Source of the DNA: Patescibacteria group bacterium
GTDB taxonomy: Bacteria; Patescibacteriota; Dojkabacteria; J137
NCBI GenBank assembly: GCA_016861265.1
Contig: BOLA01000001.1
Span: 852,136 to 916,135, forward strand
Direction of reading: 5' to 3'
DNA length: 64,000 bases
Positions 4,807 through 56,806 of the stretch are shown here, in pieces. The notes beneath the pieces are model-generated. The model saw only the letters and a program-made list of their open reading frames with translations, searched no databases and was not told the origin of the DNA. Each line of letters begins with the position of its first letter. Positions within the stretch are counted from its first letter, which is position 1. Made by a program: the position numbers and the translations under genes.

Positions 4807-5103
4807 ATGGAATCTGATGTAGTTTTACGAATGTCCGTTCAGATATGGCAATTAATCCAATTATTAGGATTTGGCTGTCTAATTCTGAGCTGGCTGCTAT
4901 TTGCTTATGGGCTTGCCCAAAAGTTGAACGGAAGTAAACGAAAATGGATTAGGACACTATTAGTGTCACTTATGTTCCTTGTGATCTTTGGTATTTCAGT
5001 TTTTATCACAATAACTACGGAGTTGTTTGATGAAAGAACCCAAAGAATGTTCGATGAGAACATAACAATCCCCTTAATTACTGAAGAAAATCAGGGGCAT
5101 TGA
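4807..5103 (+). CDS. small membrane protein (2 TM)
   Basis: A 98-aa ORF with two hydrophobic helices. GGAGG lies upstream (ttatggaggtgttgaATG). Confidence 0.4.
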   Translation: MESDVVLRMSVQIWQLIQLLGFGCLILSWLLFAYGLAQKLNGSKRKWIRTLLVSLMFLVIFGISVFITITTELFDERTQRMFDENITIPLITEENQGH

Positions 5104-5120
5104 CAGTAAAAGAGCGTATA

Positions 5121-5145
5121 AAGGGCAACAAATAATGTTGCCCTT
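5121..5145 (+). terminator. rho-independent terminator hairpin
   Basis: AAGGGCAACA-aataa-TGTTGCCCTT stem-loop after the 4807..5103 stop, followed by a T-rich tract. Confidence 0.5.
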
Positions 5146-5259
5146 CGCATTTCTTATGTACTGCCATATTCCGTTGACAATCACAAACGGCCTATGGCCC
5201 TTCTAGGGATAGATTTTAGAGACCTATATTGTAATGTTATTGTAAATTTACCATCTGTA

Positions 5260-5289
5260 TTGACAATTACATATAAATAAGGGTATAAT
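5260..5289 (+). promoter_or_regulatory. near-consensus sigma70 promoter driving the GC-rich ORF 5322..5663
   Basis: TTGACA-18nt-TATAAT, followed by SD GGAGG at about 5313 and the ATG at 5322. Confidence 0.55.
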
Positions 5290-5321
5290 ATATTTGTTCA
5301 TAAAAAATTTGCGGAGGATGT

Positions 5322-5663
5322 ATGGCACAGCAAGTACGCCACTATCGCTCGTCCACCCATCAGTTGGACTTTTCTCGCCTTGACCCGCGTAAGCGGACTT
5401 GGTTGGATAAGGCTCTTGATTGGGCTGGTATCGTATGGACAGTGGTAAGGCTTGCCGCTACTGCTGTCCTCTCAATTGTCTTCTTCGGGTATGTAGGCAC
5501 TGTAGGAATGAACTTCTTCGGTGTCAGCACCTATGCTCAGATGCCTCACAGCATCTATACCACGTGGTTGCTCATGTCCGGGGTTGGCACTTTCCTGATC
5601 GGTGTAGTATTTTTCTGGGGTGAGATTTTCCCTCAGAAGTCGAAAACTCGCCGCTCACGGTAG
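5322..5663 (+). CDS. small 2-TM membrane protein encoded by GC-rich island A
   Basis: A 113-aa ORF. Its GC content (about 52%) and codon usage differ strongly from the flanking genes (about 33-38%). It has its own consensus promoter and SD and a downstream terminator. Two hydrophobic helices are present. Confidence 0.5.
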   Translation: MAQQVRHYRSSTHQLDFSRLDPRKRTWLDKALDWAGIVWTVVRLAATAVLSIVFFGYVGTVGMNFFGVSTYAQMPHSIYTTWLLMSGVGTFLIGVVFFWGEIFPQKSKTRRSR

Positions 5664-5680
5664 TTCGTGAACACGCTCAG

Positions 5681-5712
5681 GAGCGTCACTTGTCTCAGAC
5701 AAGCTGACGCTC
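5681..5712 (+). terminator. rho-independent terminator of the island A gene
   Basis: GAGCGTCAcTTGTCT-cag-AGACAAgcTGACGCTC hairpin followed by taaccttttttag. Confidence 0.55.
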
Positions 5713-5810
5713 TAACCTTTTTTAGAGGCTAGACTTTCAATTTACACTAAATTTATAATCCCAGTCAAGGTATACTTTAGATATTGTTACTGTTATATTG
5801 TTTTACTATA

Positions 5811-14119: not shown

Positions 14120-14474
14120 ATACACTAAGGCTCGTGAATTATATCTAATCCCCAGGCTCTTGTCTACCGAGTTTGAATTCAGATACCAGAAGTAGGTAAT
14201 AACTTTAGCGATTATTACTCAAAATTTCCGTTATTAATACGCCTGCCGATAAGATTTTACAACTTTATGACTTCTTCTGCAAAATTAAAGAAATCGCCCA
14301 AAGCCTTTTAGAGCCTAATCAATCGCAATTGATGCTTTAATGTCTAAAAGTATATATAAGTTTCTGGCCAAATTATCACAAAGCTTAGTCGCTAATTACA
14401 TGAAAATGTAATGATACTAAATTCCCCCTGATCATAGTAATTTAACCTTCGGATAGAAAAGGCAAAATATCCTC

Positions 14475-14840
14475 CTAGCTATCAAAACTACCGGATGATG
14501 CATATATCTCATATTCGCTAGTAGTATCAACTGGGAAATCTAGTATTTTAGTCTTAGATATAATCCTCCCTATGCCTCGTCTGTTTATAACGACTTGTGC
14601 GACATTATCTTTCACTCCTAAAAATTCTCCATTAATTACTTCTGGTAATACGTGAGGAGGTTTATGAATTATTGCAACCTTATACCCTGTCTCTATTTCC
14701 TTAAAACTGGAGTACCTTATAAATCCATCTGATTCAATCTTCTCACGAAGTTGCCTAGTATGGGATTGAATGTGAACCTTGTCATAACCATAACCACTGC
14801 CCAAATCACCACTTTCTAGTCCGTACCAATTGAAGTCCAT
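14475..14840 (-). CDS. small protein ending in a Ser-rich tail (SSGSFDS). It is the last gene of the kinase/nucleotidyltransferase operon and may be an RRE or substrate-like protein.
   Basis: A 121-aa ORF lying 14 nt downstream of the kinase gene on the same strand. Confidence 0.4.
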   Translation of the reverse strand: MDFNWYGLESGDLGSGYGYDKVHIQSHTRQLREKIESDGFIRYSSFKEIETGYKVAIIHKPPHVLPEVINGEFLGVKDNVAQVVINRRGIGRIISKTKILDFPVDTTSEYEIYASSGSFDS

Positions 14841-14853
14841 ATGATTACATTTA

Positions 14854-16014
14854 TTAAAGTAATTTGATTTTTTGTATTAAGTAATTAAAATTCTTTCTGT
14901 AGTCAAAGCCAGATGATACTGAATAACTTTTTGTATTTTTAAATATTTGTATTAGTTCTTTTCTTCTTTCTTCTGTTTTTAAATTGGTCATTTTTGTTAA
15001 ACTCTTGAAAAGCATAACCGTAGGTGCAAGGCTTACTTCTAAAAATCTATCAACAATTTCAGTGAGGCTATTTTTCTTAATTGATATGCCAGACTTATTT
15101 TTATCTAGAGAAACCTTTAAAACATGGGTTATTTGATCGGTTGAAAGATTACCTTTACTTTTGGATAGAGCATCAAAATATATCGACATTTGTTCTTTCT
15201 TCCCAAGTTCGAATAGTTCTTTTTTCTTCATATGTGCCATATCTAAAAAAGCATTATTGATAATGCCAGCGTTAACAAAGAAATCTTTAAATTCTAAGTA
15301 TGTACCGACTCTGATATTGAAATAGTTTCTTATATTATAATTAAGTATCGCCCCATATCTCGTAACATATGTTGTTTCCTCTGTAATGATTTGCCAGCCA
15401 CTTGCTAAAAACAACAAAGCAAAAGTTGTTTTCCCACCTAAAGATGAATTACTGAGAAGAATATTGTTTTTCCCATCACTTACTAACCCACCATGCACTG
15501 CGTATAAGTCACCGTATAATAAGTACGGTGTAAGCAATAAAATATTAATCATAGTCAATGCTTTTTTCTCATTTTTAACTGCCATTAAGCATTCGCTAGA
15601 TTCCGTATTATAAATATAATAAAAATGATCGTAGCATTTGATAATGTAAAATTTATTATCAACTGTGCATTTTGAGCCAGAGGTATTGTGTGTTGCTAAG
15701 TTAAATTTCTTTACTCTCGGATTAGTAGACCATTCCGCGTGTAGAAATATCAACTCAATCTTTTGGAAAATATCTTCGTTTTCTAAGATAAAAGCTTTGA
15801 TGTTATTACGATTATTTTTCTGTGAAGTGCTTAATAGTGTATTGAAAGAATGACTAAATTCTATTAAGTGATCAGAACATAAGTCATAATTACAAGTTAT
15901 AGTTGTTATTAGATTATCACTAATCAAACTATGTACAGTATGGCTTGATTCATTTGTTATAGCTTTTAAACTATCAATAAAAATTTCGTTTACTTTTGCG
16001 GTTAAATCATTCAT
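14854..16014 (-). CDS. HPr-kinase-C-terminal-domain-like P-loop serine kinase
   Basis: YAVHGGLVSDGKNNILLSNSSLGGKTTFALLFLASGWQIITEETTYV matches the HprK_C pattern (HG.lv...G.llLitG.SG.GKSt.AL.L...G..lvaDD). Confidence 0.55.
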   Translation of the reverse strand: MNDLTAKVNEIFIDSLKAITNESSHTVHSLISDNLITTITCNYDLCSDHLIEFSHSFNTLLSTSQKNNRNNIKAFILENEDIFQKIELIFLHAEWSTNPRVKKFNLATHNTSGSKCTVDNKFYIIKCYDHFYYIYNTESSECLMAVKNEKKALTMINILLLTPYLLYGDLYAVHGGLVSDGKNNILLSNSSLGGKTTFALLFLASGWQIITEETTYVTRYGAILNYNIRNYFNIRVGTYLEFKDFFVNAGIINNAFLDMAHMKKKELFELGKKEQMSIYFDALSKSKGNLSTDQITHVLKVSLDKNKSGISIKKNSLTEIVDRFLEVSLAPTVMLFKSLTKMTNLKTEERRKELIQIFKNTKSYSVSSGFDYRKNFNYLIQKIKLL

Positions 16015-16028
16015 AGAAAATCCAGTGT

Positions 16029-17051
16029 TTACTTATAATTTTTTATAATATCGTATGAAAATAGTCTATCTATCAAACTTCCAGTATCTTCCATCTTTTT
16101 TTCAGGCTTATACTGGTCAAAAATTACTGTCATAATATTATCGCTTATATAACTATATTTCTGATAAAGTAAATTAACATTGTTTAATGACAGTATCTCT
16201 GGAAAAATCTCAGCGGTATAATTTAGTGTAAAAAACACATGTTTATCAAAACCGTACTTTAGAGAGTCTTCGAATATTTGGTCGATGTTAATTTGTTCGA
16301 AATATTTTTGGATAAAAGTATATATATCAACAAATTTATATAAATCCAATACCTTTCTTTTTTTTACAAGGTCTAATAAGGCTGAATCTTTGTAAAGGTG
16401 GCTACACAGATGGATAAATAGGTGTTCTTCTTTTAACGAATAGATTGAAAAGTTGTCATCACTAGAAATGAGAACTCGTTCCTCCAAAAAATAATCTACC
16501 ACTCCATTAGAGGTGTTTGGCGTCCAGTCTAAAGAAAAATTAACATCGATATCAATAGTTTTAATAGTTATTTCATTAAGTATTTTAACAAAAGGAGCCA
16601 TTTCACCTCTAGTATTTATAGATTGCGTAAGTGTGTGTTGGTCAAATTCGTTAACAATATCTTTACTATAATCATACTTGCCTTGCAAAAAACCTAAATC
16701 ATACAAAATCCCTTTTACTTTTTGAATTGATTTTTTTGATACTAATATATCTATATCATTAAAAGCTCTAGTACCTGAGGGGTAAATAGTACTTGATAAG
16801 ACTGATCCTTTTAAGAATGTATGTTTTACATTTGCTTCCGATAACTTTGAAGAAATGCTTTTAATATATTCTTTTTGTAAATCTGTTCTTATGCTTTGTG
16901 CCTGATGGATCATATAAATTGTGAAAAAAACAGGAAAATCTAGTTTTCTTACATCGATGGAGTTTACAACTTGATATGCAAGGCCAGCAACTCGGTGGTA
17001 GCATAAGTATCCTAAAACTTCGATCCAATTTAAAGTTTTATCACTCAGCAC
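16029..17051 (-). CDS. uncharacterised nucleotidyltransferase (PF14907-like, MNT/pol-beta superfamily)
   Basis: GSVLSSTIYPSGTRAFNDIDILV is a G-S...DxD nucleotidyltransferase motif. The ORF is about 340 aa, typical for this family, and appears to start with GTG. Confidence 0.5.
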   Translation of the reverse strand: MLSDKTLNWIEVLGYLCYHRVAGLAYQVVNSIDVRKLDFPVFFTIYMIHQAQSIRTDLQKEYIKSISSKLSEANVKHTFLKGSVLSSTIYPSGTRAFNDIDILVSKKSIQKVKGILYDLGFLQGKYDYSKDIVNEFDQHTLTQSINTRGEMAPFVKILNEITIKTIDIDVNFSLDWTPNTSNGVVDYFLEERVLISSDDNFSIYSLKEEHLFIHLCSHLYKDSALLDLVKKRKVLDLYKFVDIYTFIQKYFEQINIDQIFEDSLKYGFDKHVFFTLNYTAEIFPEILSLNNVNLLYQKYSYISDNIMTVIFDQYKPEKKMEDTGSLIDRLFSYDIIKNYK

Positions 17052-17208
17052 TTCAATAAGTCTTTCATTTTTTTTATTGCCTAATTTTACTATCTCTAGT
17101 ACAGCATTATGTTCTTTTTTTATAGTGGTTTCTTTATTAAATATATAACAGGAATGATAATATGAAGACGAGGTAAAGTCAAATCTGTCCAGTAAATCAG
17201 TTGATTAG

Positions 17209-18144
17209 ATGCAATTAGTATGGTATAAATCTTTTTTAGAATTAAAAAGTTTTATGAATATGCTTGATAACAAATATCATTCTTCAAAAATCTGTTTAGG
17301 AACATGGCGAATGGGAGGAGACGTTAAGCCAAATCCTAATAATGATGATGAAAAAGACATTGATGCCATTAAATATGCAATCAGTAAAGGTATTTCACAT
17401 ATAGATACCTCAGAAAGCTATGCAGATGGCAAATCTGAGTTGCTCGTTGGAGAAGCAATAAAAAAGATATCTAGGGACAAATATTTTTTAGCTACTAAAG
17501 TTCGTGAATATAATCTTTCTTATGACAGTGTTATTAGCTCCTGTGAAAAATCTCTACAAAGACTTAATGTTCCAAGCATTGACTTATATTACATCCATAA
17601 ACAAAATCCACTCATTCCCATTGAAGAAACAACTAGAGCCTTAAATAAGCTCATTGATACTGGACTTATTAAACATATAGGGCTGAGTAATGTCGGAATT
17701 GCTACGATAAAAAAATATTCTCAACTACTAAACAGTCCAATTTATGCAGTTCAAAATCAATATAATCTCGTTTGTCGTGAGTCTCAAAGAAAAGGTGTTA
17801 CAGATTATTGTAAACTAAGTGGAATTCAATTCATTGCGTGGAGACCTATTCTACTTTCATATCCGGGAGTTGTAGATCCCTATTATCATACTGGCACGTA
17901 CAGATTATTGGATGAAATGGCTAAAAAATATAACAAAACAAATACACAAATTGTGGCCAAGTGGCTTGTACAACAAGATGGAGTTTCTATTGTTTTTAAA
18001 AGTTCTAACAAAGAACATATTGATGAAATTTTAGATATTGAAAATTTTAAGCTTTCCGATAGTGATTGGGAAATATTAGATAAAGATTTTCCAGTGCAAA
18101 AAGATTTAGGGTGTACTGCTGACGTTTATTTTGAGTTATCGTAA
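17209..18144 (+). CDS. aldo/keto reductase family oxidoreductase
   Basis: It carries GTWRMGG, IDTSESYADGKSE and LLDEMAKKY, consistent with an AKR (alpha/beta)8 barrel. The true start is probably the internal ATG near 17254 (MNMLDNK). Confidence 0.7.
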   Translation: MQLVWYKSFLELKSFMNMLDNKYHSSKICLGTWRMGGDVKPNPNNDDEKDIDAIKYAISKGISHIDTSESYADGKSELLVGEAIKKISRDKYFLATKVREYNLSYDSVISSCEKSLQRLNVPSIDLYYIHKQNPLIPIEETTRALNKLIDTGLIKHIGLSNVGIATIKKYSQLLNSPIYAVQNQYNLVCRESQRKGVTDYCKLSGIQFIAWRPILLSYPGVVDPYYHTGTYRLLDEMAKKYNKTNTQIVAKWLVQQDGVSIVFKSSNKEHIDEILDIENFKLSDSDWEILDKDFPVQKDLGCTADVYFELS

Positions 18145-18224
18145 CAAATCGTTATCCTTATATCGCAATTTAGTTTGCTTAATGAGATAATACAATTTAT
18201 TTTACCAAGTCTAGAAAATGATCC

Positions 18225-19373
18225 ATGGTTAATATTATACAAAGAGATACAAAAATCAAAGAACCATATGAATCCCTTTACAAATTGAATATTGGCCTAT
18301 CTATTGACGAGTTTGAAGCAGAAGAGGCAATGTTGGAGATTTTGAAGGAAGAAAATTTACAAAAAAGAGTAAGTCTTTTAACAATGTTACTAAATGGGGT
18401 TATGATTAAGGGACCTTCTGTTTCTGAAGTAAAAGGATTAATAAACGCCTCATTATCGTTGGATGGTATATTAAAAACACCAAGACCAAAAATTATTTTG
18501 CCAAATAAAGAACTCTTAGTTGGTGTAGCGTCAAGTGGTAAAAAGGGGTTTAAAACAATAAATATTACTACACCTGCTAGTTTTGTTGCGGCTGCTTGTG
18601 GTGCATTTACTGCAAAGGCATGTTCACATTCAACGTCTTCCAAAACAGGTTCCTCTGATCTTTTAGAAATAATTGGTATCAATATAAATATCCCTTTCAA
18701 AGAAAAAGTCACAATATTACAAGAAAAGAGAATTGCTTTTTTTTCAATTGAAGACACAACTCCAAATTTTGCTAAAGTTTATGAAGGCGTATTTTATGCT
18801 CCGCACGCCATGAGTTTTGCCCTAGCTGGACTTAGCTTTCCGGTCAAAATTGATGCTCTTGTATATGGTTTGTCACATCCCAATGTTAAATTGTCGTTAG
18901 AGGTGTATAAAGAATATGGTTTTAAAAATGTTTTAGTCTACTCATCTAGTGAAGACGGTGTACATTATTTAGATGAATTACCAATCTCTGGTTACGCTAA
19001 TATCATAGGTATGAAAAATGGCAAGGTTGTCCGGAAAATATCAGCTAATATAAAAGATACATTTCCTTTCAATCCAAGTAATAGTTTAAAAGAATTAGCC
19101 GAAAAGGAAACGAAAATTGATAATGTCAAGGCTTCTCTAAGAGTACTAAATGGTATAGGCTTAGAAAGCCATACTGATGCTATATGCATTAACGCAGCAC
19201 CTATTATTCTTTTAGCGGGAAAGGTTAAGTCGTTAAAAGAAGGATATTTATTGGCAAAGAAAAATATTCAGGAAGGAAAAGTATTTAAATTGTTTTTAGA
19301 AGTGGTTGAATTGTATGGGGGAGATTTAAATCAAATAACGAATCTATTATCAGAATCTGATCCTTTAATTTGA
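18225..19373 (+). CDS. TrpD-fold protein (anthranilate phosphoribosyltransferase / glycosyltransferase family 3-like) with degenerate catalytic motifs. It is possibly YbiB-like.
   Basis: TINITTPASFVAAACGAFTAKACSHSTSSKTGSSDLLE aligns with TrpD [38 protein letters not shown]. GTGGD is replaced by ASSGKKG and KHGN by KACSHS. Confidence 0.5.
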   Translation: MVNIIQRDTKIKEPYESLYKLNIGLSIDEFEAEEAMLEILKEENLQKRVSLLTMLLNGVMIKGPSVSEVKGLINASLSLDGILKTPRPKIILPNKELLVGVASSGKKGFKTINITTPASFVAAACGAFTAKACSHSTSSKTGSSDLLEIIGININIPFKEKVTILQEKRIAFFSIEDTTPNFAKVYEGVFYAPHAMSFALAGLSFPVKIDALVYGLSHPNVKLSLEVYKEYGFKNVLVYSSSEDGVHYLDELPISGYANIIGMKNGKVVRKISANIKDTFPFNPSNSLKELAEKETKIDNVKASLRVLNGIGLESHTDAICINAAPIILLAGKVKSLKEGYLLAKKNIQEGKVFKLFLEVVELYGGDLNQITNLLSESDPLI

Positions 19374-19465
19374 AAGCAAGGTATCAGATATTTAAAAAGA
19401 ATTATGCTCTATATGCCTGTCTGTGCTATAATCCATTAATATTTATGTTTGTTAGATTATAAAAT

Positions 19466-20578
19466 ATGAATTCAAATTTTGAGGATCCGAATAAAGAAAA
19501 AGAGGAAAGACAGACTATTATAGAAAGGCCTATTGCTGAACAGCCGCTCGCATCTTTTGAGCAACAGGAGAGTATCCAATGGAAAGTTGAAATCTTTACA
19601 GGTATTAGACCAACTGGGGATTTGACGGTGGCTAATTTTGTAGGGGCAGTAGCACCTATTCTTGAATTGCAAAATAATGGCAAACATCCTATGGTTTTTG
19701 TAGCTGATCTTCATGCAATGACAGATAAAGAACCTAAGATAGCAATGCAATTCACCAATGATGTTGTTGCAGATTATATAGCTTTAGGACTCAATCCAGA
19801 GCAAACGGATATATTTGTACAGTCTACAATTGCTCAACAGGTTGGACAACTCACATTATATTTAATGAGACATATTTCAATTGCTGAGCTTATTAGAGTA
19901 CCTACATTGAAAGATAAACTGAAAGATGGTCAAAGAGAAGAAAATGCAAGTGCTTTACTAGCAACTTACCCTGTCATGATGGCTGCAGATATTTTAATAC
20001 AGAGAGCAAAAGAAGTTCCTGTTGGAGAAGATCAAGTTCCACATATTGAAGTGACAAGATTACTTGCTAAACGCTTTAACGCACAATATGGTCAAACCTT
20101 GTATGTACCCAAAGTTCAACAAGTAGAAACATTAAGAATACGATCTTTGAAAGGTGAAGGTAAGATGAGTAAAACAAATCCCAATGGTGCTATTTTTTTA
20201 ACTGATAGCCTTGATGAGGTTGCAAAAAAAATTAAAAAGGCTGAAACAGCATTTGCAGGAGAAATGAGTCCTACTCTAGCAAGTCATGTTACTCTAGCAA
20301 AAAATCTAACCTATAAACCAGAAGATAAAGTTCTAATAGATGAGATAATAGAAGCACATATGCAGGGGCAAACTGTAATGGGTGATTTTAAAAAGATATT
20401 TACAGAAATTACATTAAGGTTTATAGAAAATTTCCAACAAAGAAGGGCACAAGTAATGTCCGATCCTACATATATTCCATCTATTCTAGAATACGGAGCT
20501 AAAAAGGCAAGAGAAAATGCGGACGAAACATTAGGTTCCGTTTACGAAGCTATGACTAGTGGCGCAAAGGAGGGATAA
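19466..20578 (+). CDS. trpS: tryptophanyl-tRNA synthetase (class I; TIGN-type HIGH variant) with an N-terminal extension of about 40 aa
   Basis: FTGIRPTGDLTVANFVGA resembles the Bacillus-type SGIQPSG..TIGNYIGA, with the KMSKT (KMSKS) motif downstream, and PVGEDQVPHIEVTRLLAKRFN. Confidence 0.7.
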   Translation: MNSNFEDPNKEKEERQTIIERPIAEQPLASFEQQESIQWKVEIFTGIRPTGDLTVANFVGAVAPILELQNNGKHPMVFVADLHAMTDKEPKIAMQFTNDVVADYIALGLNPEQTDIFVQSTIAQQVGQLTLYLMRHISIAELIRVPTLKDKLKDGQREENASALLATYPVMMAADILIQRAKEVPVGEDQVPHIEVTRLLAKRFNAQYGQTLYVPKVQQVETLRIRSLKGEGKMSKTNPNGAIFLTDSLDEVAKKIKKAETAFAGEMSPTLASHVTLAKNLTYKPEDKVLIDEIIEAHMQGQTVMGDFKKIFTEITLRFIENFQQRRAQVMSDPTYIPSILEYGAKKARENADETLGSVYEAMTSGAKEG

Positions 20579-20628
20579 GATTCTTAGGAGTGCAAAAAAT
20601 ATGGTATATATAAATTTGTATATTTCTT

Positions 20629-21726
20629 TTATGATTTGATCTGGTGTGCAAATTTTTGTGCTTGTTTACTAATCAGGTCTGCATCTTCAAAATAATTAAT
20701 CCCGATTGCACTTTTAACTCTCTGTGTCGTTTGGGAAGCCACATTACGTGCTTCTCGGCTGCCTTCAAGCAATATTTTATAAACTTGTGGAATGTTTTTT
20801 TGATATTCCTCTCTCCTAGTACGAAGTGGCATTAATTCTTCTTGAATAACATCATTTAAGAAACTTTTTATTTTCGTATCGCCTAGACCTCCTCTTCTGT
20901 AATGATCTTTCAGCTCATCTAAATTATTATAACCAGCTAGGTATCTTTGTAAATGATTAGGTTTACAAAAAGCATCTAAATAAGTAAAAACTGGATTATT
21001 TTCAACAGTGCCGGGATCTTCTACTTTTAAATGATTGGGATCTGTAAACATCCCCATAATTTTTTTCTTAATTTCCTCTGGCGAGTCTGCAAGGTAAATA
21101 CCATTATTTAAAGACTTGCTCATTTTCGCTTTCCCATCTAAGCCTGGTAATCTGCTACAAATATCATTCTCTGGTAATGATGCATTTGGTTCTACCAAAG
21201 TTTCTCCATAGATAGAATTAAAACTTCTAACAATTTCTCGTGTTTGTTCTATCATCGGTAGTTGATCGTCACCTACTGGAACAATATTAGCGTCAAATGC
21301 TGTAATGTCAGCAGCTTGGCTCACTGGATATGTCAAGAATCCAGCAGGAATACTTTTATTAAAACCTCTTAACTTTATTTCTTCCTTTACAGTAGGATTC
21401 CTTTGTAATCTTGCTACTGTAACTAAATTCAGAAAATAATATGTTAACTCACATAGCTCAGGAATCTGGGACTGAATAAAGATAGTAGATTTATTGGGGT
21501 CAATACCACATGCTAAATAATCTAATGCTACCTCTATTACATTTTGTCTTACTTTTTCAACATTGTCTGCGTTATCAGAAAGTGCCTGAGCATCCGCGAT
21601 CATAATAAAGATACCATCAAACTTTCCAGAGTTTTGCAATTCAACTCTTTTCTTTAATGATCCAACATAGTGACCTAAATGCAGTTTTCCTGTGGGCCTG
21701 TCCCCAGTTAGAATAATATTTTTCAT
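20629..21726 (-). CDS. trpS: tryptophanyl-tRNA synthetase (canonical HLGH-type)
   Basis: It carries TGDRPTGKLHLGHYVGSL (HIGH), KMSKSLNN and VPVGDDQLPMIEQTREI, and is 365 aa. Confidence 0.8.
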   Translation of the reverse strand: MKNIILTGDRPTGKLHLGHYVGSLKKRVELQNSGKFDGIFIMIADAQALSDNADNVEKVRQNVIEVALDYLACGIDPNKSTIFIQSQIPELCELTYYFLNLVTVARLQRNPTVKEEIKLRGFNKSIPAGFLTYPVSQAADITAFDANIVPVGDDQLPMIEQTREIVRSFNSIYGETLVEPNASLPENDICSRLPGLDGKAKMSKSLNNGIYLADSPEEIKKKIMGMFTDPNHLKVEDPGTVENNPVFTYLDAFCKPNHLQRYLAGYNNLDELKDHYRRGGLGDTKIKSFLNDVIQEELMPLRTRREEYQKNIPQVYKILLEGSREARNVASQTTQRVKSAIGINYFEDADLISKQAQKFAHQIKS

Positions 21727-21738
21727 AAAGAAACAGTC

Positions 21739-22935
21739 TTAATTCTTATATAAAAATAGTTCGTTGTATGTATCAATATCTTTTTCATATTTCGATTCTT
21801 CCCAAAGGGTTTTAATTTCAATAAAAAACTTCAAATATTCATACTTTATTTTAGTCCAATCTTCGTAATTTTGTTCTAGATTTTCAAAAGCACTTTTGGC
21901 TTCTATTAACTTGTCGGGACTCCAATTAGAAGCAAGTATCATCATTTGTAAAATAACCTCCTCATTTCTCTTCCCACAGTCAATAATTTTCCTATGTAAT
22001 TCCTCTTCGCTATCTCCAACATTAATAGAAGAGTCTGGAATGCTTTTTGACATTTTAACATAAGGGAAAAGACCACCAATAAGCTTTCCATACAATGCAC
22101 CGATTTCAGCATCTTGATGAACCAAGCTATCCACGCCTCCACTCTTCACTTTCATCCTATTAAGTGCAATTCTTGCTAAATACGGATGGTGATGTTCTTC
22201 CAATCCTACCGGCACTATTACACCTCGTTTTTTGTCACGAACTATCGGTAGGATAATATCTGTCATTGTATATGTCCTACTCACCATTTTTGAGAAATCG
22301 TTCCCAAGCAATTGTAATCTTTTATACATATCGTTAGTTACTTCACGATTTTCGAGCAAATCTTCAGTACTTAAAACACTAGAAACAAGTGAAAACACTC
22401 GGGAATGATCATGAAAGTTATGTGTTCTAATTTCACCGTTTTTTTCATTAAATCCCAATTTCTTAATAAAAGATATAAACTGATAGGAATTTCTTATTAG
22501 CTCATTTAATGGCTTTTGTCTTGAATTTAATGCACTTAATTCAGAAATGATTATATGAGTATAAATACCTGTTTGTTTTTGAAGTTCAAGTACTCTAAAA
22601 ATAGAAGAAAGTGTACCGGCCGTTGGGGAATTAGTAGGACCAAATCCTGTTACAATAGCTAACTCGGTCGTAGGAATTTTATTAAAGATTTCTAAATTAT
22701 CGTAACACAAATATTTAGAATTTAATTCATTGTGCTTCCCATAGCCATGTAATTGAATATTATTAGGAAACTTAACATACTTAAAATCTTCGATTATTTT
22801 GCCAAGTTTGTTATTGGAATATTCCAAATCCTTTAATGCATGCTTAAGATCATTTGCAACTTCTTCAATCGATTTATTTTGTTTCTCTGCTATTTCTTTT
22901 AATTCATCATTTGACAAATTTAAATTGGTTTTCAT
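21739..22935 (-). CDS. divergent TrpRS/TyrRS-family class I aminoacyl-tRNA-synthetase-like paralog with a degenerate HIGH motif
   Basis: KMSKSIPDSSINVGD and VPVGLEEHHHPYLARIA align to TrpRS. The HIGH position reads TGFGPTNSPTAGTL, with no His. A coiled N-terminal extension of about 100 aa is present. Confidence 0.5.
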   Translation of the reverse strand: MKTNLNLSNDELKEIAEKQNKSIEEVANDLKHALKDLEYSNNKLGKIIEDFKYVKFPNNIQLHGYGKHNELNSKYLCYDNLEIFNKIPTTELAIVTGFGPTNSPTAGTLSSIFRVLELQKQTGIYTHIIISELSALNSRQKPLNELIRNSYQFISFIKKLGFNEKNGEIRTHNFHDHSRVFSLVSSVLSTEDLLENREVTNDMYKRLQLLGNDFSKMVSRTYTMTDIILPIVRDKKRGVIVPVGLEEHHHPYLARIALNRMKVKSGGVDSLVHQDAEIGALYGKLIGGLFPYVKMSKSIPDSSINVGDSEEELHRKIIDCGKRNEEVILQMMILASNWSPDKLIEAKSAFENLEQNYEDWTKIKYEYLKFFIEIKTLWEESKYEKDIDTYNELFLYKN

Positions 22936-23300
22936 GATTCACAATAGAATGTTTATAAATAAGTATTAAACGCTACACTGTAGCGAAAATTTAACATTTA
23001 TAAGATGTAGTGTCAATTTGTTTGTATTTCATATGAATTCAAAAAATCAGACATTAATGCCATATTTTTTTATTAAAGAATTTATAATTTATTAAATTTC
23101 TTTAAAAAACTACAATAATAGATGTTATTGCAATTTCTTACAAAAATATACATACCCCACTAATTCCATTTCTATCCATTGGTTTGTCCAAATATCAAAA
23201 ATAAATACAGGTACTTTCTTCCCAGATTATATATTTTTCTTGACAAACATAAAAAAGATGGAATAAGATTAGTTAGTTCCTAAATATTAATACTATAAGT

Positions 23301-25811: not shown

Positions 25812-25904
25812 CTGATGAACGAAGTGATGAAACTATGGTGAAACTGCTAATCCGAAAAAATGACTATTTTACGATCTTTAAAAACCTACCAAAGCGAGAG
25901 CCAC

Positions 25905-50301: not shown

Positions 50302-50356
50302 AAATATTAAGTTAATATAAACTTAATTATTCTATCATAAGTATACCTGTGGGATT

Positions 50357-50387
50357 TATTGTTGCACTTTGTTGTCGGAACTTTCCC
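50357..50387 (-). terminator. terminator hairpin downstream of the island C gene 50413..50634
   Basis: CTTTGTTGTCGG-aactttc-CCGACAACAAAG (12-bp perfect stem). Confidence 0.5.
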
Positions 50388-50412
50388 GACAACAAAGTTT
50401 AGCGCGGTGAGC

Positions 50413-50634
50413 CTAAGCAGCTTGGGATGCAACTAGCTTAATATGATCGTCCATCTGTTGCTTTACATCAGATGAAGCGCACTCATAAGAGCTTGTGTAG
50501 CAATTCTGAGCTTCAAAAAGCTCCATTCCGGCTTCTTCACTGGAACTCCCAGTTCCATGACGCGCCAGTCTTTTTGAACGCTCCTGTGCTTCCACCAGTC
50601 GCTCCCAACATTGCTTCAGTTCTTCAAAGTTCAT
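50413..50634 (-). CDS. small cytoplasmic protein encoded by GC-rich island C
   Basis: A 73-aa, GC-rich ORF with an SD-like GAGGA upstream on the minus strand. It is flanked by hairpins. Confidence 0.4.
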   Translation of the reverse strand: MNFEELKQCWERLVEAQERSKRLARHGTGSSSEEAGMELFEAQNCYTSSYECASSDVKQQMDDHIKLVASQAA

Positions 50635-50709
50635 TGAAAAGTCCTCATGTCTTTACCGTGCCAGGAAGTATATCATTTGTTATTAATTTTAGACAACATT
50701 TGAAGTGTT

Positions 50710-50733
50710 GTGGGCGAGCATTACGCTCGCCCA
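50710..50733 (-). terminator. terminator hairpin immediately after the stop of 50738..51010
   Basis: GTGGGCGAGC-atta-GCTCGCCCAC. Confidence 0.5.
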
Positions 50734-50737
50734 CGGA

Positions 50738-51010
50738 TCACTCCGAAGGCACGTTATTTTTCATGTCTTCGAAGGCAGCTACAATATGCGGCTCGCATTC
50801 TGCGAGCCGCCTTTCCAGTTTCCCATTCTCAGAATCTTTGATTGCCAGAGCCTTTTTGTATTCAAACTCTGGTACCAAATTGATTTTGGTAACTGGATTC
50901 TCATAGCTGTTAATGATTTCCTCAGCAGCAAGTACAAGGCTGTATATGCCGCATAAGCCGACTAACAGCCACATCTCAGCAGCTGTTAACGAGTGCTTTG
51001 CAGATTCCAT
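50738..51010 (-). CDS. small TM-anchored protein encoded by GC-rich island C
   Basis: A 90-aa ORF with a TM (MWLLVGLCGIYSLVLAA). On the minus strand upstream are the promoter TTGCAA-16-TATAAT (about 51043..51070) and SD AGGAG. Confidence 0.45.
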   Translation of the reverse strand: MESAKHSLTAAEMWLLVGLCGIYSLVLAAEEIINSYENPVTKINLVPEFEYKKALAIKDSENGKLERRLAECEPHIVAAFEDMKNNVPSE

Positions 51011-51042
51011 TGTTTACTCCTACTATAAAAGCACAACTGGGA

Positions 51043-51070
51043 TTATATGTTGATTAGATAATCTTTGCAA
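51043..51070 (-). promoter_or_regulatory. sigma70-like promoter for the island C gene 50738..51010
   Basis: The reverse complement reads TTGCAA-agattatctaatcaaca-TATAAT ... AGGAGtaaacaATG. Confidence 0.45.
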
Positions 51071-52689: not shown

Positions 52690-53330
52690 GGGTGTATAAA
52701 ATTGCAAAAGGCGGTCCCTCATAAAGAGAAACCGCCTTCCGCTGCTAACCTTTCGGATCGCAGCTTTCACAGCCTTTCGGCTGTGTGTAGAACCTAGAGT
52801 AAACTCTGGTATCCTAAGCGGGAACCCAACACTTCTGCTGGGAACTGGAATACCTTACCCTAGGTCAGTGAGTGATACCGATACCGAATTTTGTAGCGAG
52901 CAAGCTGCTACAAACCTTCGTCCGCTAATATCGGTATCGTGCCGAATGTGGGGGACACACTCGGCAGTCAATTTTGGTGCCGCATTTCACCGCTTCCTTG
53001 CGAGTGAATGCTGCAAATTGAAAACGTGATTTTCACTTTGCAATATTCAGTTGAGATTTTCGCTCGGTATACAAAGATACCGAGCGGTCCGTTAAGCGTA
53101 TTTCTACGCATTATTCTAGACTTTTCCATCCCCATGTTTTGGTTCAAAGTCCTGACAGGGGCCTTGCCTTGGCTTTCTTTCGAAAGACGGCCTAAATAAA
53201 CTGAATTTACTTAAGTTGTCCTTTGAAATTATGTTGTTAAATGTCTGGGAAGCATTCTATGAATGCTTCCCGCTAGTTCGTGAAAGTCCGGTTCCTCAAT
53301 GAGGACCAGTCAGCACTAACGGGTGGATTT
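52690..53330. ncRNA. GC-rich, highly structured non-coding region (candidate large ncRNA, class undetermined)
   Basis: About 640 nt at about 52% GC with no credible ORF and many perfect stems. These include CACAGCC-tttc-GGCTGTG, TTTGTAGC-gagcaa-GCTGCTACAAA, GATACCGATA...TATCGGTATC (long-range), CGCTCGGTAT-acaaag-ATACCGAGCG, GGGAAGCATTC-tat-GAATGCTTCCC and TCTTTCGAAAGA. It contains GAAAGUCCGG, an RNase P CR-I-like decamer, but in the wrong position for RNase P. Confidence 0.45.
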
Positions 53331-53441
53331 AAATTTTCATTAAATACTTATATCCAACCCACTAGTACATTTAATTTAACGAGCTATAATCATTATATAC
53401 CAAAGCACGCTTAAAGTAAATACTCCTGGGACGCGTTGATT

Positions 53442-53600
53442 TAGTTATAACTCTGCCGCAACCTTATTCGGTAGATATTCCAACAGTAAATTATGTCTAT
53501 CGACTTTATATCGATATCTAACCTTCCCAGTAGGTCTTTGTCTTCTACTGTAGAAACTTACTATACCAAAGGCCACGATTACTGAGACGATTTCGCCCAT
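53442..53600 (-). CDS. possible small Arg-rich TM protein (52 aa). Low confidence.
   Basis: AAGGAG lies 8 nt upstream of the ATG. The ORF reads MGEIVSVIVAFGIVSFYSRRQRPTGKVRYRYKVDRHNLLLEYLPNKVAAEL. It is adjacent to the structured RNA region. Confidence 0.25.
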
Positions 53601-53800: not shown

Positions 53801-55732
53801 ATGAATAAGAAAATTAGAAATTTTTGTATTATTGCTCATATCGACCATGGAAAATCAACCTTAGCTGACAGATTGATTGAAACTACAGGAGCAGTATCTT
53901 CTCGAGAAATGAAGGACAGAATGTTAGATACACTTGAATTGGAACAAGAAAGAGGTATTACCATAAAGCTTCAGACTGCCCGATTAAAGTATGAATATAA
54001 AGGCGAAAACGCCGAAAAGGGTGATTATATTCTTAACCTTATTGATACACCGGGTCATGTAGATTTTAGTTACGAGGTATCTCGTTCAGTTGCTGCCAGT
54101 GAAGGTTGCTTGTTATTGGTTGACGCGACCCAAGGTGTTCAGGCTCAAACACTAACTACTGTTTATAAGGCAATGGAATATGATTTAAAAATAATTCCTG
54201 TAATTAATAAGGTAGATATGGACATTGCCGAAGTTGAAAGAACCAAGCAAGAGATGATTGAAACCTTTGGATTTTCCGAGGACGAAATTATTATGGCATC
54301 TGGTAAGTCAGGAATCGGTGTTCACGAAATATTAGATGCAATTGTAGAAAGAATTCCTCCTTATAAAAAAGAGGAAACAAAAATATTAGCTGACGAAGAT
54401 GAGTTGTTAATTCTAGAAGGCAAAGAGACTAAAATTACAAAGGCGTTAATCTTTGACGCGTTCTTCCATGAATATAAGGGTGTAACTGCTTTAGTTAAGG
54501 TAATAAGTGGAGAAATCAAAAAAGGAGATAAGGTTTACTTTATAAGTACTCAAACCGATGTAACACCAATAGAAATTGGTTATCTACTGCCCAAAATGAC
54601 AGAGTCCGACTCTATAAAAGAAGGCGAAGTAGGTTATGTAGCAACGGGTTTAAAGGATATTCACAGAATTCATTCAGGCGATACAATCACTCTATTCCAC
54701 TCAAATCATAGTCATGAATCTGTTGAACCGCTTAAGGGTTACCGACAGCCAAAACCAATGGTGTACGCAAGCTTATATCCTGTAGAAGCTAGTGATTACG
54801 AAAGTTTTAAAGAAGCTTTAGAAAAATTATCACTAAACGATGCTGCTTTAACTTACCAAAAAGAATATTCTCAGGCATTAGGAACAGGTTTTGTTTGCGG
54901 ATTTTTAGGACTTTTACATTTAGAAATTACTCAAGACAGATTAGAGCGAGAACACAATATTGATTTAATTAGTACTACTCCGACTGTAGAATTTAAAGTG
55001 CTGTTAAAAACGAGGGATTACTCCAAGATTCCAAATATAAATGTGTCTAATATTGAAACCGAAACAAATATTGCAACTATACGTACAGCTGCAGAATTCC
55101 CTGAAGGAAGTATGTACGAAGAAGTTTACGAGCCTTGGGTAAAACTAGATATTATTACTCCTGAAGAATACATTGGTCCAATAATGGAACTTTGTCAAAA
55201 CAGAAGAGGTGTATATAAGCACATGAACTTCTTGAACAAGTCAGGGAATAAGAATCATGCAATTATAGAATATGAAATGCCTACTGTAGAGATTATTGTT
55301 AACTTTTTTGACAGATTAAAGTCAATTAGTCACGGATACGCCTCTATGGACTATTCGTTAATTGAATACAGGAGAGGTGATATTGTTAAGGTCTCTATTT
55401 TGGTTAATGAAGAACCTGCCGAATCTTTAAGCTTTTTAACTCACAGAAGCAATGCCGTAAGAAGGGGTCGTGAAATGGCTGATAAATTAAAGGAGTTAAT
55501 CCCAAGACAGAACTTTAAGGTTCCAATTCAGGCTGCAATTGGTGCGCAGATTATTGCAAGGGTAACAATAGACGCCTATAGAAAAGACGTCCTCGCAAAG
55601 TTATATGGAGGTGATGTTACTAGAAAATTAAAACTTCTTGAAAAGCAAAAGAAGGGAAAAAAGAAAATGAAGGCAATTGGTAATGTTGAAATTCCTAAAG
55701 AAGCTTTCTTAGCTGCATTAAAGATTGATTAA
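53801..55732 (+). CDS. lepA: elongation factor 4 (LepA)
   Basis: N-terminal NFCIIAHIDHGKSTLADRL, then DTPGHVDF and NKVD, and the LepA-specific C-terminal domain. Confidence 0.9.
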   Translation: MNKKIRNFCIIAHIDHGKSTLADRLIETTGAVSSREMKDRMLDTLELEQERGITIKLQTARLKYEYKGENAEKGDYILNLIDTPGHVDFSYEVSRSVAASEGCLLLVDATQGVQAQTLTTVYKAMEYDLKIIPVINKVDMDIAEVERTKQEMIETFGFSEDEIIMASGKSGIGVHEILDAIVERIPPYKKEETKILADEDELLILEGKETKITKALIFDAFFHEYKGVTALVKVISGEIKKGDKVYFISTQTDVTPIEIGYLLPKMTESDSIKEGEVGYVATGLKDIHRIHSGDTITLFHSNHSHESVEPLKGYRQPKPMVYASLYPVEASDYESFKEALEKLSLNDAALTYQKEYSQALGTGFVCGFLGLLHLEITQDRLEREHNIDLISTTPTVEFKVLLKTRDYSKIPNINVSNIETETNIATIRTAAEFPEGSMYEEVYEPWVKLDIITPEEYIGPIMELCQNRRGVYKHMNFLNKSGNKNHAIIEYEMPTVEIIVNFFDRLKSISHGYASMDYSLIEYRRGDIVKVSILVNEEPAESLSFLTHRSNAVRRGREMADKLKELIPRQNFKVPIQAAIGAQIIARVTIDAYRKDVLAKLYGGDVTRKLKLLEKQKKGKKKMKAIGNVEIPKEAFLAALKID

Positions 55733-55735
55733 CTT

Positions 55736-55766
55736 CAGAGGGTTGGGGATAAATCCCCTTCCCTCT
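55736..55766 (+). terminator. terminator hairpin after lepA
   Basis: AGAGGGTTGGGG-ataaat-CCCCTTCCCTCT. Confidence 0.45.
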
Positions 55767-55795
55767 TAAAACACCACGTGGATGTTATTAAAGCC

Positions 55796-55817
55796 GATCT
55801 CGCGCTAGCGCGAGATC
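55796..55817 (-). terminator. perfect palindromic hairpin overlapping the stop of 55805..56146
   Basis: GATCTCGCGC-TAGC-GCGCGAGATC, with the stop codon in the loop. Confidence 0.45.
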
Positions 55818-56146
55818 AGCAGGTCGATTCCGTAGCATCCGTAATCCGGATTTTGCGGTTCGGCGTGCGCGAGACTGTGGAATTGCTGCGGCATATTATC
55901 GAGCGGCAAGCAAACCTCATCACCACTTTGAAGGTTAAAGGTTTCGCTTCCTAGAATCACGTCATAGTCCGTGTTGTTGTTGGTACGGAAAATGGCGGTT
56001 TCGCCGGGTTCCACTTCAACAACATAACTGTGACCGATTCCATTCTGGTATTGAATCTTCACGGCCACTTGGGCAGTGGGTGTTCCGAAAACCAGAGCCA
56101 TGAGAATCGACAGTAGCCAGCGAATCAATTCGTACATACGACACAC
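55805..56146 (-). CDS. small secreted protein (signal peptide) encoded by GC-rich island E
   Basis: A 113-aa ORF with signal peptide LIRWLLSILMALVFGTPTAQV. On the minus strand upstream are TTGTAT-16-TATAAT and SD AAGGAG. It is GC-rich. Confidence 0.45.
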   Translation of the reverse strand: MCRMYELIRWLLSILMALVFGTPTAQVAVKIQYQNGIGHSYVVEVEPGETAIFRTNNNTDYDVILGSETFNLQSGDEVCLPLDNMPQQFHSLAHAEPQNPDYGCYGIDLLISR

Positions 56147-56293
56147 TCCTTGCTTTTTAAGTTGCTTTTAATTATAGCACTTATTGCTATATATACAATA
56201 TATACTGGGGTTGGATTGAAGGGAAAGTTTATTATAAAAAGCAATTGGCAGGTTGGGAGTTTTATTTCCCTTCCTGCCAATGTAGTGCGCTAC

Positions 56294-56683
56294 TTACTGT
56301 GCGTCTGCAACAGTGAAGCAGCGTTTGTCGCCGTCAACCTCTCCGCGAGTGTTGAACGGCGCCGGAATCACGAAGCTGCTGACGCAAACCCGATCATCCG
56401 CTGCAATCTGCACCTGCTGGGTATTTACCGTCAGCAAGGCGCCCCCATTGTTACTTTTTACGAAGGTAAACACCGTGTGCGGGGGGCGCACCGGGTACCG
56501 GTCATTCATGCCACTTGCGTGGCTGACCGCGATCTCTGCGTTTGGAACGACAGTGGGTTGCCCCGCCTGTCGAGCCTCGGTGATGATCTGACGAGCCGTA
56601 TTGCGGTACTTTACCGCTAACGCTGCCAGTATCACCAAAATAATCACCAACGCAAGCCGCTTCACTCTCTTGGATTTCTTCAT
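56294..56683 (-). CDS. small membrane-anchored protein encoded by GC-rich island E
   Basis: A 129-aa ORF with an N-terminal KR-rich region plus TM (LALVIILVILAALAV). SD GGAGG and TATAAT lie upstream on the minus strand, and a hairpin lies downstream. The overlapping + ORF 56150..56620 is judged spurious. Confidence 0.45.
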   Translation of the reverse strand: MKKSKRVKRLALVIILVILAALAVKYRNTARQIITEARQAGQPTVVPNAEIAVSHASGMNDRYPVRPPHTVFTFVKSNNGGALLTVNTQQVQIAADDRVCVSSFVIPAPFNTRGEVDGDKRCFTVADAQ

Positions 56684-56806
56684 CTGACACCTCCGTCAAT
56701 AATCAAGAGACATATATATTATATCATATTTAGATATATTAGGTATATATTCAGTACTTTAGTGCTTATTTTGCCACTTATTCAATAATCGTATATAATC
56801 CAATCT

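Follow-up and report, generated by a model that had tools for sequence, protein, structure and literature searches.

Klein, Misulovin and Eddy reportedly made GC-rich islands the basis of non-coding RNA (ncRNA) gene finding in AT-rich hyperthermophiles in 2002, and the phage morons of Juhala and Hendrix are said to be autonomous promoter–gene–terminator units of atypical composition lying between phage genes. For horizontally acquired genes, an amelioration model is said to have been put forward by Lawrence and Ochman. The region considered here is a 64,000 nt stretch of contig BOLA01000001.1 of a Patescibacteria group bacterium (hereafter the window, on the whole of which all positions are counted), and its subject is a set of five GC-rich islands set between the genes of an AT-rich chromosome. 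These islands are akin to known kinds, that is, to GC-rich structured-RNA islands and to moron-like or cassette-like units. The best reading of them is that they are neither foreign DNA nor ordinary genes, but an old compositional regime that is maintained by selection and tied to RNA structure. Nothing of this kind turned up in a full-text search of the published literature. Strains and relatives used for comparison are cited by labels (L001–L189).

A sequence-only reading of the window had placed the islands at about 5250–5715, 32660–33535, 50355–51070, 52690–53330 and 55790–56760, with 50–58 % GC. These locations are borne out by 300 nt bins, in which the five intervals lie at 0.44–0.55 GC, clearly above the rest, and by the GC of the intervals themselves (0.479, 0.483, 0.436, 0.459 and 0.484, with a background of 0.337). 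The range of 50–58 % does not hold for the whole intervals (0.436–0.484), because they take in AT-rich promoters, and is roughly right only for the cores of the open reading frames (ORFs) of the coding units (0.45–0.56). The islands do lie in intergenic gaps with undisturbed neighbours, as had been proposed; islands 1–5 are flanked by the intact genes h98/Hsp20, PPDK_N-like/ClpC, RmuC/MraY, h169/LepA and LepA/PrfB, respectively. Together they contain eight promoter-to-terminator units, namely seven protein genes of 73–129 aa (A in island 1, B and C in island 2, D and E in island 3, F and G in island 5) and one ncRNA of ~690 nt (island 4). A fine scan revealed no further comparable islands in the window, its other GC-rich spots being two tRNAs, an origin-like repeat within a mobile element and short stretches of host genes.

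Deviant codon usage, likewise part of the sequence-only reading, is confirmed by comparison with 35 host ORFs. The GC content of third codon positions (GC3) is 0.41–0.66 in the seven island ORFs versus 0.252 ± 0.025 (maximum 0.31) in the host ORFs, and the compositional difference lies mainly at synonymous sites; in the islands, GC3 > GC1 > GC2. Arginine is encoded by CGN codons in 77 % of cases in the islands versus 8 % in the host, where AGA accounts for 67 %; CGC and CGG make up 58 % of island arginine codons versus 2 % in the host. Similar shifts are seen for CTG (24 % versus 4 %), ATC (53 % versus 8 %) and CCG (46 % versus 13 %), and the codon usage of the islands as a whole resembles that of a genome of ~52 % GC. 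The standard genetic code is apparently in use: ORFs called with table 11 are intact, TGA stops occur in 3 of the 35 host ORFs and in unit E, and an RF2-type release factor gene is present (PrfB, with PCRF and RF-1 domains).

Substitution patterns among strains bear directly on how this composition persists. Singleton substitutions at third positions were polarised by majority rule across five strains. In host genes, 221 GC→AT changes at 751 GC sites and 255 AT→GC changes at 2008 AT sites imply an equilibrium GC3 of ~0.30 (observed 0.27). The island third positions show 13 GC→AT changes at 151 GC sites and 18 AT→GC changes at 89 AT sites, which implies an equilibrium of ~0.70; at host rates 44.4 and 11.3 changes, respectively, would be expected. 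The deficit of GC→AT changes is 3.4-fold (P = 1.2e-8, Fisher; P = 3e-8, Poisson). As far as can be read from aligned strains, the GC-richness of the islands appears to be maintained, with no decay toward AT. Translational selection for GC-ending codons was considered and rejected: G- and C-ending codons both rise, and EF-G of a relative has an ordinary GC3 of 0.27, so that GC-ending codons are not translationally preferred.

The coding units are also predicted to fold more stably than their composition and codon usage would imply. Against synonymous-codon shuffles, which keep both the protein and the codon usage, the z-scores are −2.5 (A), −1.8 (B), −2.5 (C), −4.5 (D), −5.8 (E), −2.5 (F) and −4.2 (G), with a mean of about +0.2 in five host genes. 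Against dinucleotide shuffles of the full units they are −3.7, −2.5, −4.5, −6.7, −7.4, −4.0 and −5.7 in the same order, with a mean of about −0.1 in seven host segments. Island ORFs from distant lineages are negative in 11 of 11 cases (−1.4 to −5.6), including the unrelated alleles of L188 and L189. In 15 of 18 units folding is more stable for the sense than for the antisense strand (mean −10.6 kcal/mol, P = 0.002), an advantage that points to RNA rather than to DNA hairpins. Additionally, substitutions that break predicted stems total 27 in units E, F and G versus 44.3 expected, and unit E has none among 15; segments of LepA and PrfB have 50 stem-breaking substitutions versus 48.9 expected.

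Island 4 (52700–53420, minus strand) bears out the one structured RNA of the sequence-only reading and is read from its sequence as a new structured ncRNA with its own predicted promoter and terminator. The putative promoter is TTTACT-17-TATAAT (53420–53392; −35 at 53415–53420, −10 at 53392–53397), the transcript would run from ~53385 to 52700, and a 17 bp terminator with a T-run (52742–52704; hairpin at 52706–52740) closes the ~690 nt so bracketed. No ORF is present in six frames of the window or in L102 and L187, and a decayed or frameshifted gene was rejected on that ground. The minimum free energy is −267.6 kcal/mol versus −183.5 ± 7.3 in shuffles (z = −11.6), about twelve near-perfect hairpins follow one another in the predicted fold, and folding of the minus strand is favoured over that of the plus strand by 28 kcal/mol. 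Compared with flanking third positions, island 4 changes 2–5 times more slowly within the species complex. None of 18 substitutions in L101 breaks a stem (null 8.1 ± 1.7), and 5 of 22 do so in L099 (null 9.7 ± 1.8, P = 0.0075). Compensatory double changes occur at 53306/53291 and 52780/52773, and several G·U→A·U changes make sense only in a minus-strand RNA. A core at 52990–53235 can be aligned with L102 and L187 and has 67 consensus pairs, of which 12 are kept by double changes versus 5.7 ± 1.5 in shuffled data (0 of 500 shuffles) and 0–3 in slid controls; 96 % of cells pair in the real register versus 29–45 % when slid. The island has no Rfam match at the gathering threshold or at E ≤ 10, on which basis RNase P, tmRNA, 6S, OLE, GOLLD, ROOL and other known RNAs were rejected as identities, and no match was obtained in relatives.

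The architecture of island 4 varies between lineages. In L101 an extra GC-rich module of 348 nt (9069–9416 of L101) is inserted after window position ~53233, and it starts with the AT-rich hairpin motif ACTTAAGTAAATT.AGTTTATTTA, nearly as in the next segment; the motif is present as a single copy in the window (53193–53215). Because the module repeats the hairpin motif of the next segment, the RNA appears to be modular. L102 likewise has additional sequence between the conserved patches. Immediately upstream, island 4 is preceded on its own strand by a highly conserved AT-rich ORF of 51 aa (MGEIVSVIVAFGIVSFYSRRQRPTGKVRYRYKVDRHNLLLEYLPNKVAAEL; 53445–53600, minus strand) with a predicted promoter TTGACT-16-TATAAT (53706–53679), and its orthologue in L102 has a synonymous-shuffle z of −5.2. 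Since no terminator separates this ORF from island 4, the latter could be a co-transcribed 3′ extension.

Comparison of assemblies and relatives indicates that the islands form part of the vertically inherited, syntenic core of a Dojkabacteria-like clade of Patescibacteria (candidate phyla radiation, CPR). Six of the seven island proteins are found exactly in public data, in a 1,114,243 bp contig at NCBI and in several Logan and ENA assemblies, and independent runs carry identical genes in identical slots. Such exact and syntenic copies in independent assemblies speak against the chimeric assembly that the sequence-only reading had wished to exclude, and against an engineered origin. The slot of unit A is kept in L008–L013, and in L188/L189 it is occupied by GC-rich genes for proteins with two transmembrane (TM) helices; unit B is syntenic in L001–L007 with 96–100 % aa identity. 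L094 compares with the window at 99.5 % aa identity for LepA, 97 % for PrfB, 92 % for F and 62 % for G.

The same slots can be followed into lineages that are far more diverged. In L102, L183, L184/5 and L186/7 (LepA ~91 %, PrfB 80–87 %, MraY ~80 % and RmuC 89 % identical to the window), F-like genes (29–37 %) and G-like genes (33–39 %) adjoin PrfB and/or LepA, the full PrfB–LepA interval being spanned only by L102 and L187. In L102, moreover, the MraY–RmuC gap contains an E-like gene (29 %) and a D-like gene (44 %), and the position of island 4 is taken by a GC-rich stretch without genes. Synonymous sites of host genes have reached saturation between the window and these lineages (synonymous divergence, dS, at least 1.8 or undefined), and the small genes there have a GC3 of 0.43–0.67 versus 0.19–0.27 in host genes; on our own estimate, decay at the rates of host genes in a two-state model would leave only ~15 % of the initial excess, for a GC3 of ~0.32. 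L188 and L189 (Hsp20 83 % identical, genome GC 0.315) have one small two-TM gene in the slot of island 1, with GC3 of 0.59 and 0.64, respectively, versus 0.13–0.24 in the host. No empty site was seen in any strain or in five diverged lineages, all slots being filled. The nearest named genomes by LepA (76 %) are L014, Patescibacteria KLAP211, and L015, Candidatus Dojkabacteria PAT1; gene order is not conserved in either, which makes the empty-site comparison uninformative there, and a LepA scan of metagenome contigs returned relatives of at most 51 % only. The orthologous families D, E, F and G follow the host phylogeny with their slots fixed, the alignment of the F family being too divergent for pattern scans. 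Islands in syntenic positions of related genomes had been expected to mark ordinary conserved genes; the synteny is indeed found, but ‘ordinary’ does not fit genes whose composition appears to be actively maintained.

As a side observation, neighbouring host genes range in dS from 0.004 to 0.55 within the same strain pair (strains L094, L099, L100 and L101); for L099 it is 0.004 in PrfB, 0.146 in LepA and 0.354 in MraY. This mosaic points to pervasive homologous recombination in the CPR population.

The coding units share a compact predicted layout. On the plus strand, unit A (5260–5712) has its −35 at 5260–5265, −10 at 5284–5289, Shine–Dalgarno site (SD) at 5313–5317, ORF at 5322–5663 and terminator hairpin at 5681–5712, and encodes 113 aa with a basic N-terminus, two TM helices and a basic tail (GC3 0.59). 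Unit B (32686–33101; −35 at 32686–32691, −10 at 32710–32715, SD at 32749–32753, ORF at 32762–33070, hairpin at 33077–33101) encodes 102 aa with a TM anchor at the N-terminus and a two-cysteine ectodomain (GC3 0.62). It is followed by unit C (33142–33531; extended −10 at 33142–33150, SD at 33165–33169, ORF at 33177–33482, perfect 13 bp hairpin at 33505–33531), whose 101 aa product has a cleavable signal peptide and two cysteines (GC3 0.63). The remaining units are on the minus strand. Unit E (50710–51070; −35 at 51065–51070, −10 at 51042–51047, SD at 51017–51021, ORF at 50738–51010, hairpin at 50710–50734) encodes 90 aa (GC3 0.48), and unit D (50366–50672; −10 at 50667–50672, SD at 50642–50646, ORF at 50413–50634, perfect 13 bp hairpin at 50366–50398) a soluble helical protein of 73 aa (GC3 0.41). 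Unit G (56245–56726; extended −10 at 56718–56726, SD at 56690–56694, ORF at 56294–56683, hairpin at 56245–56280) encodes 129 aa with a TM anchor, a two-cysteine beta domain and the C-terminal CFTVADAQ (GC3 0.66). Unit F (55796–56179; extended −10 at 56171–56179, SD at 56146–56150, ORF at 55805–56137, hairpin at 55796–55817) encodes 110 aa with a signal peptide and a beta-sandwich of ~7 strands with two invariant cysteines (GC3 0.59).

Throughout these units the predicted −10 is TATAAT or near-TATAAT and lies 26–46 nt 5′ of the start codon, the leader of 19–39 nt carries an SD of the GGAGG type, and the stop is followed by a perfect GC hairpin. The strong SDs and boundary GC hairpins of the sequence-only reading are thus present, at the level of sequence, in all seven ORF units. 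Its near-consensus sigma70 promoter for every ORF stands for A (TTGACA-18-TATAAT, 12/12), B (11/12) and E (TTGCAA-17-TATAAT, 10/12) and fails for C, F and G (extended −10 TGnTATAAT) and for D (TATACT), all four of which are without a good −35. Promoters do not set the units apart in any case, since those of host genes match equally well, for instance that of Hsp20 (12/12). Two more TTGACA boxes are found 5′ of unit A, at 5102 and 5174 (within 5102–5271), the second forming part of a 12 nt direct repeat with the real −35 of unit A (TTGACAATCACA / TTGACAATTACA, 86 nt apart). The motif TAGTTCGTGAA, common to the 3′ side of ORF A and island 4, was dropped as chance, about four 11-mer matches being expected between sets of ~3 kb by our own estimate; no repeat family common to several islands was found.

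The products agree with the expectation of small proteins (seven ORFs, 73–129 aa) that mostly carry signal peptides or TM segments: A, B, C, F and G fit, and D is soluble. Distant paralogy links F and G (hhalign probability 92.5 %, E = 4.8e-7), and a relationship of B and C to them was rejected on comparison; within the distributed system that the sequence-only reading had thought possible, F and G are thus far the sole pair related to each other. The AlphaFold model of F has a pLDDT of 85.8 and its fold is without a match in PDB or among viral folds. F and G are predicted to be disulfide-containing beta-sandwich domains, the former secreted and the latter membrane-anchored. The ratio of nonsynonymous to synonymous divergence (dN/dS) is 0.087 for E (versus L099), 0.115 and 0.33 for F, and 0.119 and 0.27 for G, against 0.004–0.07 in the host, and dN versus L102 is 0.65–0.87 in island genes and 0.05–0.13 in host genes. 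The island genes are truly coding, yet evolve about ten times faster than host proteins, and the evolution of these small envelope or secreted proteins is rapid and probably diversifying. The ORFs of G and F are intact in L099 and L101. Public gene calls at 5939–6190 of L099 and 5584–5766 of L101 (83 and 60 aa) are in the wrong frame over the true G of 129/130 aa, F is uncalled in L101, and the mini-ORFs of L094 are missed; gene finders err in GC-rich islands because several frames stay open.

Searches for a source or family returned little beyond the clade. Among 5.8 billion proteins, G falls into four clusters and C into one. An exhaustive HMMER search of F against 1.84 billion representatives gave five small homologues, and the four that were looked up all lie in the slot flanked by PrfB and/or LepA in related organisms; matches of F to the large repeat proteins P0044, P0050 and P0051 were judged spurious, being confined to short repeated stretches. 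Pfam, PADLOC and PHROGs yielded no family for the island proteins, a plasmid collection and a phage collection gave no match to the islands, and no vector similarity was seen. As orphans without a family, plasmid or phage match, the islands do not come from a known foreign source.

Exchange of whole units between strains is nonetheless apparent. Over 20 kb, L188 and L189 show 96 % identity, with a promoter (TTGACA-17-TATACT) and the downstream flank in common, yet they cannot be aligned (39–56 % identity) from roughly where transcription would start as far as the terminator hairpin. The slot proteins, of 115 and 126 aa, have no detectable similarity and are both of A-like architecture. The downstream boundary of the island 1 cassette is marked by an AT-rich flank motif at 5737–5759 (reverse complement ATTTAGTGTAAATTGAAAGTCTA), which is identical beside the swapped cassettes of L188 and L189. 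From this comparison, a cassette the size of a transcript appears to be exchangeable between strains under an unchanged promoter. A partial replacement is seen in L094, where the 5′ half of G (10001–10250 of L094, corresponding to window 56400–56700) is ~50 % identical between strains with flanks at ~92 %, the breakpoint lying within the ORF; the replaced half is less GC-rich (0.43–0.45). In L186/L187 the F-like and G-like genes stand in reverse order with respect to the window.

Additional small genes occur near these slots. L183 has, at 861–1211, a further AT-rich membrane protein gene of 117 aa in the PrfB–LepA slot (GC3 0.29, z −5.7). In L094, three further tiny GC-rich cassettes on the minus strand, uncalled by gene finders, lie by tRNA-Gln at 700–1560, just past the right end of the window (window 64000 = L094 2683). 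All three are equipped with an AT-rich promoter, a GGAGG site and a GC hairpin, and by eye their products include a zinc-ribbon-like protein of ~73 aa (CPxCG, CxxCG) and a basic peptide of ~44 aa (MSYNKKQLRRIEVQNW...). The three uncalled cassettes suggest that the class of such units is larger and under-annotated.

The explanation favoured here, with moderate confidence, is that selection on RNA structure maintains the GC-richness of these fast-evolving envelope-protein mini-genes. The composition would then be an equilibrium under selection, in which GC→AT changes, including synonymous ones, are purged, and not the scar of an import. The transcripts would need dense and stable folds, which in a genome of 34 % GC would call for local enrichment in G+C, by the same logic under which tRNA and ncRNA genes form GC-rich islands in AT-rich genomes; the demand for structure would act alike on all codon positions, on terminators and on the non-coding member. 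Folded mRNAs of this kind might be long-lived and RNase-resistant and so sustain the output of variable envelope proteins acting at a host or phage interface, and island 4, expressed in the same style, may act as a regulatory RNA or as a scaffold.

Several points weigh against this explanation. Changes between strong (G, C) and weak (A, T) bases at island third positions number only 31, so that counts are small, and majority-rule polarisation is imperfect. Comparisons of rates and summed P-values can only be approximate, because the strains share history and are recombination mosaics. Nor are GC-rich units the only ones with excess structure, since two AT-rich small genes near island slots score z-values of −5.2 and −5.7, and the stem tests of single coding units are marginal (P = 0.02–0.14). 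The accessibility and pairing of SDs is heterogeneous, without a common partner or a clear translational logic; for SD sequestration and a hok-like fold-back of the 5′ and 3′ ends no consistent pattern was seen. Promoters, terminators and all structures are predictions and the explanation gives no reason why these particular proteins need structured mRNAs; GC-biased gene conversion (gBGC) could add to the bias from weak to strong bases.

In its full form this last process would be the main rival: the cassettes would be hypervariable loci with frequent recombination between strains, and at such hot spots gBGC, through heteroduplex repair in favour of G/C, would drive and hold the GC content, with RNA structure as a by-product or a secondary matter. 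Recombination at the islands is evident from the replacement in L188/L189, the G half of L094, the F/G order of L186/7 and the module of L101, and both the weak-to-strong bias of substitutions and the order GC3 > GC1 > GC2 are as gBGC would have them. It does not, however, predict structure beyond that of composition-matched and synonymous-codon shuffles, nor stem-preserving and compensatory changes, nor the folding advantage of the sense strand. The flanking host genes recombine too, as their mosaic dS shows, yet stay at a GC3 of ~0.25, and the shift from 0.25 to ~0.6 is far above the few percent associated with recombination in bacteria. An origin of the composition in gBGC is considered unlikely.

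Somewhat less probable still is a GC-richer external pool (phage, plasmid or the symbiont's host) that refills the slots by homologous recombination, so that the composition is the donor's. A codon usage like that of a ~52 % GC genome, the unrelated alleles in one slot of 96 %-identical strains and the moron-like layout would suit such a source. Against it, there is no homologue outside the clade among 5.8 billion and 1.84 billion proteins (5.8e9 and 1.84e9), no phage or plasmid match and no mobility gene nearby; the families D, E, F and G track the host phylogeny in fixed slots; and substitutions within the clade favour GC, which import does not explain.

A special decoding regime, in which host-rare codons (CGC/CGG, CTG, CCG) would tie translation to particular tRNAs or conditions as a mirror of bldA/TTA control in Streptomyces, appears very unlikely. 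The arginine bias (58 % versus 2 %), the strong enrichment of CTG, CCG and ATC and a tRNA-Arg(UCG) gene within the window are in keeping with it, but it predicts neither excess structure nor compensatory changes, and the enrichment is not codon-specific, since all synonymous families, island 4 and the terminators are affected. Recent foreign DNA, engineered cassettes or a chimeric assembly, the first two being the interpretation that the sequence-only reading had preferred, can practically be dismissed in spite of the atypical composition and codon usage and the tidy promoter–SD–ORF–terminator layout, as the islands occupy the same positions in many independent assemblies, have diverged orthologues in lineages with saturated dS, show no amelioration, donor or similarity to vector, plasmid or phage, and lack integrases, repeats and tRNAs at their boundaries.

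If selection on RNA structure does hold these genes at their composition, a wider proposal may be put forward, although with less than even confidence: the CPR clade might keep dispersed ‘RNA-structure-first’ mini-genes in which transcript folding, rather than mutation bias or gene origin, sets composition and codon usage, and in which the transcript, with its leader, ORF and terminator, is what alleles exchange under a fixed promoter. Were this true, eight units per 64 kb and three just beyond would extrapolate to possibly the order of a hundred per 1.1 Mb genome, and expression would follow a distinct regime in which the mRNAs of variable envelope proteins are ultra-stable or handled in a special way.

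The only truly mobile element in the window is AT-rich, in contrast to the islands. It is an integrated element of ~14.9 kb (14120–29002) between tRNA-Lys(ttt) and tRNA-Arg(tcg), and is absent from L001, where the two tRNAs are only ~120 nt apart. A large serine recombinase (27510–29084) has its 3′ end over tRNA-Arg; a Replic_Relax protein (26171–27148) and an HTH_36 protein (24876–25811) are also encoded, and the cargo includes three class-I Trp/Tyr-type aminoacyl-tRNA synthetase paralogues, an aldo/keto reductase, a TrpD-like glycosyltransferase and an NTP_transf_5 protein. The stretch at 25860–26110, which separates the HTH gene from that of Replic_Relax, contains a long, nested inverted repeat (ctaaaccttactaactc...gagttagtaaggtttag around gggagtgattgggtg/cacccaatcactccc) and, after it, iteron-like repeats of TAGGTAGG. 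This region is locally GC-rich and unrelated to the five islands, and has the appearance of an origin from which the integrated element would replicate.

The islands would serve as a natural counter-example to the equation of atypical composition with recent transfer, and detectors of horizontal gene transfer that rely on composition would mislabel these genes, because the signature is ancient, vertical and maintained. They would also be a rare instance of entire protein-coding genes that are apparently kept, by selection on RNA folding, at a GC3 ~35 points higher than the genomic equilibrium. They reveal small envelope or secreted proteins that evolve fast in an uncultured CPR lineage, one of them with a confidently predicted fold that matches no known structure, and provide a new covariation-supported RNA of ~690 nt, and the errors of gene callers make it probable that the class of GC-rich mini-genes is under-annotated.

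Set beside known systems, the islands resemble acquired genomic islands in their atypical GC and codon usage, but patchiness, flanking mobility genes, a donor and amelioration are all missing, and the signature is old and stable. The mRNAs of type I toxin–antitoxin systems (hok, fst, tisB) are likewise compact, highly structured and presumably stable, with small membrane proteins and, as predicted here, a promoter and terminator of their own; their products, however, are very small hydrophobic peptides (<60 aa), against 73–129 aa for the islands, and C and F, with signal peptide and beta domain, and the soluble D are not short pore-forming peptides. No convincing antisense promoter–terminator unit was noticed at the islands in a search that was not exhaustive. 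Integron cassettes share the small ORF with a 3′ hairpin, the exchange under a fixed promoter (L188 versus L189) and the small orphan products. They differ in that no IntI or attI is present in the island gene neighbourhoods, that the 3′ hairpins of the islands are all unlike, with no shared attC-like core motif, and that the islands are dispersed single-cassette sites, each with its own promoter, SD and leader.

Phage morons come near to the islands as autonomous units of a single small ORF between genes, of atypical composition and often with membrane or secreted products. Unlike morons, the islands are flanked by LepA, PrfB, MraY, RmuC, ClpC and Hsp20, not by prophage genes, have no PHROG match, and are ancient and syntenic, with a composition that appears to be maintained and is not a donor's. 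From the GC-rich ncRNA islands they are set apart in that seven of the eight units are protein-coding and under purifying selection, with GC3 raised most, and in that neither thermophily nor a match to a known RNA family is indicated. The likeness between the two lies in local G+C enrichment with a selected stable structure, and this is a description that island 4 fits exactly.

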